Shown here: positions 5,435 to 59,843 of the stretch, piece after piece
Position numbering within the stretch: the first letter of the stretch is position 1
How the letters are laid out: each line of letters starts with the position of its first letter
Assembly: GCA_963705295.1 (NCBI GenBank)
Contig: OY970065.1
Span: 704,001-768,000, forward strand
Reading direction: 5' to 3'
Length of the DNA stretch: 64,000 bases
Source of the DNA: Parachlamydiales bacterium
GTDB lineage: Bacteria; Chlamydiota; Chlamydiia; Chlamydiales; Rhabdochlamydiaceae
The notes under the pieces: generated by a model
What the model saw: only the letters and a program-made list of their open reading frames with translations
Database searches by the model: none
What the model was told of the DNA's origin: nothing
Made by a program: the position numbers and the translations under genes

Positions 5435-5596
5435 TATTAACCCGAGAGGTCAAAAGGTGACAAGATGCGCTGCGAGGCAAAGCCAGATTGATTCTCGCGA
5501 GGAATAACATTCTTGAATACGAAGGATTCCGAGCGAGAATCGATATGGCGAAGCCGCAGCAAGCAGGTTGTCACCTTTTGACCTCTCGGGTTAATA
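5435..5596 (+). mobile_element. Palindromic MITE-like element, core type A, copy A1
   Basis: Perfect 29-bp terminal inverted repeat tattaacccgagaggtcaaaaggtgacaa including terminal TA at both ends; 104-bp core shared with copies at 22852, 56291 and 59683. Confidence 0.92.
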
Positions 5597-8102
5597 AATT
5601 ATCCTTGGCGTCGAGGGTTTGGGGTTCTTGCTCGATAAAGATGATTTTATCGCCTTCGACGGTAGCCAGGAATGCTCCCCCTTTGTCAGGGTTGAGGAGG
5701 ACTTTTTCAGCGAGGGGGTCTTCGAGGTAGGTTTGGATCACGCGGCGGATTGGACGGGCTCCCATCGTGGGATCGAATCCTTTATCCACGAGGAACTCCT
5801 TGGCTTTTTGATCGAGGTTGAGGATGAGATGCCGCTTTGTGAGGCGGGATTTGACTTTTTGCACTTCGAGATCGATGATGGAGAGGAGTTCGGTCCGGTT
5901 GAGCGATTTGAAGGTGACAATCCCATCGAGCCGGTTGATGAACTCGGGTCTGAAGTGTTTTCGGACGGCTCCTTCGACCGTTTCCTGCATTTTTTTGTAA
6001 TCCATGATCGCTTCTTGAGCCCCGAAGCCGACTTCGGTTTGTCTACGGATGAGATCGGCCCCCAAATTCGAAGTCATGATGACAATGGTATTGCGGAAAT
6101 CGACTTTCCGTCCGAACGAGTCGGTTAACCGGCCTTCTTCCAAAATTTGGAGGAGAAGGTTCATCACATCGGGGTGTGCCTTTTCGACTTCATCGAAGAG
6201 GACGACACAATACGGTCTTTGACGGACTTGTTCGGTGAGCTGGCCACCTTCTTCATATCCGACATATCCTGGAGGCGATCCGGTGAGGCGACTAACGGCA
6301 AACTTCTCCATGTATTCTGACATGTCGACTTGAATGAGGGCTTCTTCGCCCCCGAACATGTTGATGGCAAGTTGCTTCGCCAGAAGGGTCTTTCCAACCC
6401 CTGTAGGACCGAGGAAGAGGAAGGCTCCGATGGGTCGATTAGGATCTTTAATGTCGGCACGGCTTCGACGGATAGCTCTGCAAACAATGCTGACAGCATC
6501 ATCTTGGCCGATGATACTCCCTTTGAGAATCTCTTCCATTTTTAGAACTTTCGTGGTTTCCCCTTCTGTGAGACGGGTGATCGGGATGCCGGTTTGTTTG
6601 GAGATGATATTCGCAATATCTTCTTCATCGACGATCACTTGGTGTTCTTCTTTGGTACTTTCCCACTGACTGATGAGGTTTTGGAGTTGTTCGCGGAGTG
6701 TTTTTTCATTATCGCGGAGTTTAGCGGCTTTTTCATATTCTTGATGAGCAATAGCCTCTTCCTTCGCTAAACGGACTTCTTCGATTTCAGATTCGAATTT
6801 GGAGAGATTTTGAGGTTGGTGCATCGACGCAATCCGGGCTTTGGCTCCCGATTCATCCATGAGATCGATCGCCTTATCGGGCAGAAAACGTCCAGCAATG
6901 TACCGATCGGAGAGACGGACGGCGGAATCCAGGGCAGCATCGGTGTAGACACAGTGATGGTGTTCTTCGTATTTCGCTTTGAGTCCTTGGAGAATTTGGA
7001 TGCTGTCTTCGATGGTGGGAGGGGAAACGAGAATTTTCTGAAAACGTCTCTCGAGGGCCGCATCTTTTTCGATTTTCTTTCGGTATTCATCAAGGGTGGT
7101 GGCTCCAATACATTGGATTTCTCCACGAGAAAGGGCTGGTTTTAAAATATTGGAAGCATCGATAGCACCTTCTGCGGCTCCGGCACCGACAATCGTATGG
7201 AGTTCGTCGATGAAAAGGAGGATATTTCCATTCTTTTTGATCTCATCCATGACGGCTTTGATCCGTTCTTCGAACTGACCGCGGTATTTTGTTCCAGCAA
7301 TCATCAGTGTGAGATCGAGGGCAATCAATTTTTTCTTGGCGAGATTATCGGGGACATCTCCACGAACGATAGCCTGAGCGAGCCCCTCAACGATCGCCGT
7401 TTTTCCTACGCCTGCTTCCCCGATCAGAACCGGGTTATTCTTTCTGCGGCGGCACAGGATGAGGATGAGCCTTTCGACCTCTTCTTTTCTTCCGATCACC
7501 GGGTCGAGTTTTCCTTCTCGGCAAAGCTCAGTGAGGTCGTGTCCATAGGCTCGAAGGGCGGGCATTTTGTCGCCTGCTGGAGCACCCTTGTCTTGTCCTT
7601 TGGAGGGTGGGGTGCCTGTTGGGGGGGTTGGTCCACTAATCCCCATAGGAGGGAGTTGGAGGTTGAAGGTTTCGAGTTCTTTGAGCACTTCCCGCCGAAT
7701 ATCCTTGAGGCTGACATTGAGGTTTTCAAGGACTTGAGCTGCAACACCATCGGTTTGACGGAGAAGTGCCAGAAGGAGGTGTTCTGTCCCGACATAGTTA
7801 TGACTTAAGCTGGCCGCTTCCTCATTGGCAAATTCAAATACTTTTTTGACTTTGGCTGTGAGGGCTGGGTCCCCATAGACCTGGATTTCAGGGCCAAAAC
7901 CAACGAGTCTTTCGACTTCTTGACGGACGGTTTCGTAATCGAGATTAAAGTTTCTGAGGACATTGACAGCGATCCCTTGACCCAATTTAAGAAGGCCGAG
8001 CAGAACATGCTCTGTTCCTAAGTAATTGTGGTTCATCCGCTGAGCTTCTTTCTTAGCCAGTTTAATGACCTGCTTCGCACGATTGGTGAATTTATCAAAC
8101 AT
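5571..8102 (-). CDS. clpC: ATP-dependent Clp protease ATP-binding subunit ClpC
   Basis: Clp N repeats, two Walker A motifs ([16 protein letters not shown]), UVR coil ([15 protein letters not shown]), GARPIRR; last 7 residues and stop come from element A1. Confidence 0.97.
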
Positions 8103-8241
8103 AAATGAGCGACCCCTATGATTATTTTATGTGCTTTACCCTTTTTTGGCAAATTTAGGGGATGAATATCAAGTAAAATTTTTAAAGTAAGATATTATAC
8201 CGAATTTATGTCATAATTTTTGGGTTTTTATAGGCCAAAAA

Positions 8242-59258: not shown

Positions 59259-59543
59259 TATAATCAGTCGGGGAGCGAGCTCCCCCGCTGCCCCACTTAA
59301 GCTGATTACAACTTCCTCAAATCGACCCTTTCTCGTTCTTATCGTTATATCGTTCGCATCGTTTATTTTGTTGTTCGATAAAAGATCTTACCTTACGTCT
59401 GAAAGCAAAATAAACGATGTGACGATATAACGATAAGAACGATGGGATAAGAAAAGAGATTGTTTAATTTTGAGTAGCCCCCCTATCTGCTCAGGGTCAG
59501 TTCAAGTGGGGCAGCAGGGGAGCTTGCTCCCCGACTGATTATA
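59259..59543. mobile_element. 285-bp TA-ended palindromic element (family C) with nested inner palindrome
   Basis: 40-bp TIR with 2 mismatches (tataatcagtcggggagcgagctcccccgctgccccactt); inner IR of about 37 bp at 59333-59370 / 59406-59442. Confidence 0.8.
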
Positions 59544-59682
59544 GAAAACAATTAATTCTTTAATATCTCCCTAATCTTTTGCTTCAAACCTTAAATTTTT
59601 AGGAAATTATTTTACCCTCGTTCGCTCTCGCTCACTAGAGAGCACAGAGGACACAGAGGAAATTCTAAAGATTCAGATAATT

Positions 59683-59843
59683 TATAACGGGGGCCGTAAA
59701 AAGGTGACAACCTGCTTGCTGCGGCTTCGCCATATCGATTCTCGCTCGGAATCCTTCGTATTCAAGAATGTTATTCCTCGCGAGAATCAATCTGGCTTTG
59801 CCTCGCGGCGCATCTTGTCACCTTTTTATGGCCCCCGTTAATA
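59683..59843 (-). mobile_element. Palindromic MITE-like element, core type A, copy A4
   Basis: Core differs by 1 nt from A1; TIR tataacgggggccgtaaaaaggtgacaa / ttgtcacctttttatggcccccgttaata. Confidence 0.9.

Follow-up and report, generated by a model that had tools for sequence, protein, structure and literature searches.

Orphan IS630-type miniature elements with lineage-specific terminal repeats and shuffled interiors in Chlamydiae

The small RUP repeats of Streptococcus pneumoniae have been linked to the insertion sequence (IS) IS630-Spn1 in the account of Delihas (Delihas, 2008; PMC2229807), and Stowaway-like MITEs (short for miniature inverted-repeat transposable elements) have been described as arising from Tc1/mariner elements by microhomology-mediated deletion (PMC3814204). 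Here we describe six elements in a 64,000-nt stretch of DNA (hereinafter the window) from a Parachlamydiales bacterium of the family Rhabdochlamydiaceae (assembly GCA_963705295.1, contig OY970065.1). The window corresponds to positions 704001-768000 of a genome that consists of one contig of 2,131,910 bp (43.8% G+C, 94.7% marker completeness); a look-up of public sequencing runs listed none. The six elements belong to a new, chlamydia-wide family of orphan IS630-type MITEs with genuine shuffling of interiors and occasional copying of one arm onto the other, in which the usual rules of MITE structure are not inverted. Judging from sequence comparison, this non-autonomous family probably goes back to an IS630-family (Tc1/mariner-like, TA-targeting) transposase, which presumably also moved it.

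The six elements are all present at the positions given in a preliminary description of the window, and a repeat finder groups them into direct and inverted families. Copies A1 (5435..5596, plus strand, 162 bp), A2 (22852..23012, minus strand, 161 bp), A3 (56291..56452, plus strand, 162 bp) and A4 (59683..59843, minus strand, 161 bp) contain an interior of class c1, and copies B1 (22171..22342, plus strand, 172 bp, intergenic) and B2 (23240..23411, plus strand, 172 bp) contain an interior of class c2. Each element has TATTAAC...GTTAATA ends with GGTGACAA / TTGTCACC inner boxes and is, over its whole length, an imperfect palindrome, the arms (about 70 nt) being 75-79% complementary. The variable part of the arms, here denoted the shell, is CCGAGAGGTC in both A1 and B2, CCGAGGGGTC in A2, CCGAGCCCC / CCGATCCCC in A3, GGGGGCCAT / GGGGGCCGT in A4 and the asymmetric CCGACGGGC / CCAACAGGC in B1. 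The two arms of a copy, previously said to match, do so exactly in three of the six elements and approximately in the other three (edit distances over about 29 nt of 0 in A1, A2 and B2, 2 in A4 including a 1-nt deletion, 3 in A3 and 4 in B1). As first reported, A1 and B2 have identical 29-nt arms around unrelated interiors, a 104-bp interior is common to A1, A3 and A4 with 0-1 change, and no transposase is found among the 46 open reading frames (ORFs) of the window that were scanned.

A blastn census of the genome with 11 copies as queries gave 1107 high-scoring segment pairs that merged into 88 intervals. An end-finder applied to 79 of these intervals located both ends in 68, and a further complete copy, in which 1 nt is deleted from an end, brings the number of full-length copies to 69 (161-209 bp); the remainder of the census consists of truncated copies and solo arms. 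Among the first 68 copies, 38 are 161-165 bp long and 30 are 172-209 bp long, and the copies are dispersed in the genome rather than arrayed. The arm pattern TATTAAC-N14-17-GACAA has 55 forward and 55 reverse matches in the genome, compared to 0 and 1 for a reversed-pattern control, so that the pattern seen in the window is far beyond chance. The same pattern is enriched, with 4-9 matches per strand, in about 10 other genomes of the 129-genome GTDB family; the larger count of 81 among the 129 genomes with any match includes chance matches, controls giving 0-4. In species-representative genomes, at least 80 loci carry the pattern, mostly in metagenome-assembled genomes labelled Rhabdochlamydiaceae, Chlamydiae, Chlamydiales or Parachlamydiales. 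Complete elements were obtained from 46 of these loci, and the 34 loci that have no partner arm within 420 bp are chance matches in unrelated phyla, truncated copies or deletion forms of 52-81 bp. A blastn comparison of the elements with plasmids gave no match. No description of MITEs in Chlamydiae was found in a full-text literature search; Chlamydia is not mentioned in a 2024 review of prokaryotic MITEs, and neither 'miniature' nor 'palindrom' occurs in the available text of a Rhabdochlamydiaceae genomics paper that treats IS expansion.

Read inward in a cross-genus comparison, an element consists of a terminus, a variable stretch of 9-10 nt, an A-rich segment with the GGTGACAA box, a junction and a centre, the latter being of several unrelated types. 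The two junctions are conserved but unlike each other (…GCGC.AGCGAGGCAAAGCC at one, …GCCGCAGCAAGC… at the other). Minimal forms of 92-93 nt lack the centre and fold with a GGC-AAA-GCC apical loop. The 38 short copies vary only in columns 8-22 and their mirror 147-162, and in junction columns 30-38 and 131-134, with about 92 central bases almost invariant. All these elements are small and without a transposase of their own, the in-frame cases encoding only an insert of about 54 amino acids (aa). TA is present at both ends, the outer two columns pairing as U-A in 91 and as A-U in 97 of the 98 distinct rows. Empty alleles were not recovered, and duplication of TA and insertion between T and A without duplication look alike. 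Across the same rows, the outermost base varies in about 7% and the second base in about 1% (columns 1/380 versus 2/379), and given this difference, the element proper may begin at A, inserting between T and A rather than duplicating TA.

The IS630/Tc1-type affinity proposed in the preliminary description is borne out in relatives, which possess a cognate IS630-family IS with the same architecture of terminal inverted repeats (TIRs). DDE_3 domain matches are present in 47 of the 129 family genomes. In one related genome (G127, locus L198, 1378-2501), a 1124-bp IS630-family element with TA on both flanks has 27-nt ends, TATTAACCCGAGCTA(T/C)AAACAGGTGAC, spaced 1070 nt, and contains an ORF of 348 aa, with a score of 207 bits against NCBIfam IS630 (cut-off 100) and a match to DDE_3; the subterminal sequences of this IS, compared by eye, resemble both MITE junctions. 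Another genome (G008), from the genus of the window organism, contains two transposase fragments with 66-70% identity, and a TATTAAC...AGGTGAC end is located just upstream of the N-terminal fragment. A metagenome scan for relatives of the transposase yielded 69 loci, of which 48 were examined, 43 of them showing an end pair; the seven ISs whose identity is 68% or higher all possess TA(T/C)TAA-type ends. At positions 8-17, there are 0-3 differences between the ends of an individual IS (0, 0, 1, 1, 1, 1, 3), whereas the TIR middles of different IS lineages differ by a mean of 4.7 of 10 (8 ISs). For five of the eight IS lineages, the closest MITE arm differs at 0-2 of 27 nt. Because IS ends that are 1.1 kb apart match each other yet differ between lineages, a hairpin is not needed for arm matching.

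The genome under study itself lacks an identifiable cognate transposase. A domain search found no DDE_3, rve or DDE_Tnp_1 domains, a mariner domain search was uninformative, giving no match either here or in the control genomes, tblastn with the G127 transposase produced a best E of 1.0, and no solo arms were found beside possible transposase genes. The copies are thus orphan MITEs; the transposase may have been lost from this genome or never carried, which would leave 69 copies stranded. Several other candidates were rejected. The long repeats of the genome are not ISs but paralogous ankyrin/F-box/TPR genes, a Y1 transposase is represented only by a 43-aa fragment with a stop, and the third tyrosine recombinase does not reach any of the curated cut-offs; neither is informative. 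An IS110-type mobiliser is implausible for TA-flanked elements with TIRs, and the genome has one such stop-split gene beside a truncated copy. This IS110-family transposase gene (genome 1792271-1793700, locus L125) is split by a TAG codon into ORFs of 117 and 218 aa and adjoins a MITE copy truncated inside the terminal GTTAATA; the IS110 element may have targeted the MITE end.

The preliminary description considered the shells to be specific to individual copies and the family to be the reverse of a normal MITE, of which the first is incorrect and the second is for the most part not borne out. The strings CCGAGAGGTC, CCGAGGGGTC, GGGGGCCAT, GGGGCTGGT, AGGGAACT, CCGCTGATC and others are present in 3-19 copies each when shells are classed by exact strings (single-linkage at no more than 2 differences had chained almost all of them together), and many shells are common to other chlamydial genera. 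As in ordinary TIRs, the outer 7 nt are conserved, and so is the inner A-rich/GGTGAC box; the variable 9-10 nt represent TIR lineages found in other genera and in full-length ISs, and the well-separated ends of the full ISs match each other as well. That the shells are TIR lineages follows from the same three-part TIRs in the full-length 1.1-kb ISs: each TIR of 27-29 bp comprises a conserved terminus of TA plus TTAAC, a lineage-specific GC-rich stretch of 9-10 nt, and a likewise conserved A-rich segment with the GGTGAC box.

The matching of arms is pronounced across the family. For the 69 full copies, the mean arm edit distance is 2.55 within a copy versus 7.35 between copies, with a within-copy distance of 0 in 22 copies, 1 in 14, 2 in 9, 3 in 11, 4 in 7 and at least 5 in 6. 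In an alignment of 101 of 114 elements (13 were left out for arm indels and one duplicate was removed), 96.9% of the pairs in the 29-bp terminal helix are standard compared to 81.9% in shuffles (0 of 500 as high), changes on both sides are seen in 17 of the 29 stem pairs, and 368 cells are changed on both sides versus 97 in shuffles; slid controls pair at only 35-48%. There are 3-5 standard pair types at each of positions 8-17, 20 and 22-24, and of the 31 symmetric shell 10-mers that can be distinguished, 19 are a single mirrored step from a neighbour. Shells appear to change one position at a time, on both ends, and to persist across genera. The simplest explanation of the arm matching would be that both ends must serve the same transposase, and copying between the arms of hairpin-shaped MITEs, demonstrated for one copy and suggested for several, would add to it.

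Arm-to-arm templating through a fold-back (quasi-palindrome template switch or hairpin mismatch correction), by which a mutation in one arm would be either erased or transferred to its partner, might also be the main cause of the matching, in which case the TIR middle would be an unread spacer, ISs would inherit symmetric TIRs by swapping interiors with MITEs, and one tolerant transposase would move all shells. We consider this rather unlikely, although several observations speak for it or weigh against our explanation. In copy 686812-686973 (genome coordinates, as for the copies below), the arms are perfect over 64 bp, the reverse complement of one half having taken the place of the other half, with a private change carried over. 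In normally asymmetric subfamilies, some copies are symmetrised at 2-3 linked positions at once, in either direction (1308543, 1708761, 1630754, 140447, 1226272 and 1342238), and in 1226272 the converted tract is short, leaving position 24 unconverted; templating accounts for the symmetrised copies and the 64-bp arms better than selection does. The mirrored single steps include transversions as often as transitions (8 and 6, respectively, counted by eye). At least 8 TIR lineages include copy pairs that are 97.5-100% identical in this genome, with no transposase remnant; if the middle sets specificity, many recent transposases must have vanished without a trace, and if the middle is not read, protein recognition leaves the arm matching unexplained and another cause is needed. 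The more distant ISs (44-54% identity) have stably different left and right ends in the middle region, so end identity is not a general requirement. Furthermore, mobilisation by an IS630-type transposase is presumed from the likeness of the TIRs, and the mechanism of interior exchange discussed below is likewise inferential.

Templating as the principal cause is at odds, however, with the matched ends of ISs, which lie 1.1 kb apart, with the faithful copying, many times over, of asymmetric masters such as CCGACACGC / CCTCCACGC, and with the left/right asymmetry of the junctions, which is unerased in 68 of the 69 copies; besides, some of the symmetric copies might represent ancestral states or have arisen by recombination between copies. 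The re-templating of one arm from the other envisaged in the preliminary description thus holds for copy 686812-686973 but not as a necessary cause, since the ISs match their ends as well. The transposase may recognise the sequence of the TIR middle; alternatively, the middle may be a free spacer whose symmetry is maintained by templating. A stronger variant, in which the middle is a 'barcode' that the transposase does not read and that is kept equal by end-to-end templated copying (fold-back or quasi-palindrome correction), while the shells accept any interior by way of the conserved junction boxes, even a transposase gene, and a single tolerant enzyme suffices, seems doubtful to us; if true, one and the same shell could be filled interchangeably by a full IS or by a MITE.

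Selection for pairing as such, whether in a structured RNA or in a single-stranded DNA hairpin of the attC, REP or IS200 recognition type or a small RNA family, is a much less probable cause of the symmetry; the covariation would in that case represent classic compensatory evolution. The whole element does fold as one long hairpin, the minimal 92-93-nt forms reach z = -7.5 to -12.4, the stem covariation is strong, and G.T mismatches exceed A.C mismatches on one strand (72 versus 24 copies). However, the G.T excess disappears after ancestry correction (23 versus 15 distinct states, p = 0.26; 7 versus 9 private ones), the replication orientation bias is weak (25 versus 43, p = 0.04), and full-length ISs match their ends without a hairpin. 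Rfam 15 provides no match: at the gathering threshold, the window contains only tRNA, and five elements give nothing at E <= 1. The features expected of attC, IS200/IS605 or REP/RAYT systems, namely a Y1/HUH transposase or integron integrase, arrays and a strong strand bias, were not found; the Y1 trace is the single broken fragment mentioned above, and the copies are scattered, some of them inside genes.

The shuffling of shells and interiors claimed in the preliminary description is upheld by the combinations of shell and interior, by pair identities and by an apex allele. The shell string CCGAGAGGTC...GGT surrounds two interior classes in this genome, c1 and c2, with 5 copies of each, and in another genome it surrounds c3; altogether, five shell strings are paired with at least two interior classes. 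Within this genome, interiors are at least 90% identical in 36% of the 1722 pairs of copies whose shells differ at 4 or more of 10 positions; across genomes, this is the case for only 1% of the 162 pairs whose shells differ by no more than 1. Interior identity therefore tracks the genome, not the shell. Among the 28 long (B-type) copies, the shell, the junction and flanking single-nucleotide polymorphisms are congruent, and a complex long/short apex allele is found in all three long-copy lineages, a four-gamete violation. Given that the apex allele alone is reticulate among the long copies, short-tract exchange rather than crossing-over is indicated. Interiors would be exchanged or homogenised among copies within one genome, apparently through the conserved junction boxes. 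The identity tract of the short copies begins and ends in these boxes. The route, gene conversion or template switching in gap repair after excision, is one that we only infer. The least credible alternative, that the shells are plain separate subfamilies in which shell and interior have one history and interiors held in common go back to descent alone, can draw on the congruence of the long copies and on the near-identical copies within each shell lineage, but it is contradicted by the identical arms around unrelated interiors, by the multiple interiors of five shell strings, by the reticulate apex allele and by the interior identities, which track the genome. The TIR variants do largely form separate subfamilies; what fails is the notion that these evolved free of shuffling.

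Most copies are intergenic or gene-breaking. In the window, A2 and B2 split an ankyrin-repeat gene (22545..24043, plus strand) into three ORFs (22545-22877, 23070-23396 and 23369-24043), of which the second and third have Ank matches. The three pieces are in frames 0, 0 and 2, the arrangement expected if the two elements add a net 159 and 170 nt (element length less one TA). An ATP/ADP translocase (TLC) gene has its ATG about 25 nt downstream of the end of copy A3. Copy A1, which is 100% identical to genome copy 1031854-1032015, is flanked by a ClpB-like gene and a LanC-like gene. Seven of the 69 copies (genome 1203045, 1283334, 1454552, 1098991 and three more) are in frames that stay open over 30 codons or more on either side, such that a similar peptide of about 54 residues is added to unrelated proteins. 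An abundant family that breaks genes, extends them or sits upstream of them matters for annotation and for the study of symbiont genome decay. In addition, dozens of co-resident TIR variants with matched ends, together with a candidate transposase, amount to a natural experiment on which parts of IS630/Tc1-type TIRs need to be conserved.

Several other repeats and genes in the window and the rest of the genome were observed. An imperfect palindrome of unrelated sequence (window 43802-44007; 96-nt arms, 76% complementary) has about 12 genome loci by blastn, two of which abut MITE copies (genome 839676-839809 and 2063280-2063371). A third TA-ended inverted-repeat element (window 59259-59543; 47-nt arms, 91% complementary, 191 nt between them) has about 9 genome loci and is located 140 bp from copy A4. 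A 162-nt palindrome at genome 924044-924205 has TATACC...GGTATA termini and a centre resembling one MITE interior type, and a B-like interior is present in yet another 34-nt shell at genome 1253587-1253672. Relatives contain IS630-type ISs with TATAC-type ends (L200) and MITE-like repeats (L201). Upstream of an ATPase gene, there are two palindromic direct repeats of 35 nt spaced 54 nt (window 60469-60557). Genes for a LanB-like lanthipeptide dehydratase and a LanC-like protein, unusual for a chlamydia, are directly downstream of copy A1 (window 1602-5371), and a collagen-like (Gly-X-Y) repeat with a 9-nt period lies inside an ORF that matches Pfam Collagen (window 25236-25764).

As portrayed by Delihas (PMC2229807), the RUP elements resemble those described here in being small and non-coding, with TA at both ends and TIRs that resemble those of an IS630-family IS, and it is from this resemblance that mobilisation in trans is deduced both for RUP and here. 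The TIRs differ in length (27-29 bp here, 9 bp for RUP in Table 1 of that paper), and the chlamydial family is further set apart by its hypervariable TIR middle, many co-resident lineages, interiors common across lineages and the absence of a cognate IS from the genome. The Rickettsia palindromic elements (RPE), going by the descriptions in PMC2229807 and PMC10969869, are also palindromes, about 105-150 bp long, whose host is likewise an obligate intracellular bacterium, and some of them lie in frame within protein genes, as do the 7 read-through copies among the 69 here. Unlike a family inserted predominantly in frame in conserved genes, most chlamydial copies are intergenic or gene-breaking, including the two that disrupt the ankyrin gene, and by the same descriptions they differ from RPE in their clear TA ends and IS630-type relative. 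The Stowaway-like MITEs are eukaryotic, and the gap-repair route is for the present family a conjecture; the features in common, according to PMC3814204, are an origin in the Tc1/mariner superfamily, a TA target and interiors created or replaced in repair. Finally, the Correia/NEMIS elements of Neisseria, as characterised in PMC2229807 and PMC10969869, have TA ends, target duplication, a TIR of about 24 bp and long hairpin transcripts. Like the chlamydial elements, they come in short and long forms that differ by an internal block (107 versus 155 bp there, 92-93 versus 160-210 bp here), with related element types coexisting and copies inserted into genes. The likeness is one of description and spans two phyla, and in the chlamydial case a cognate IS630-type IS has been found.

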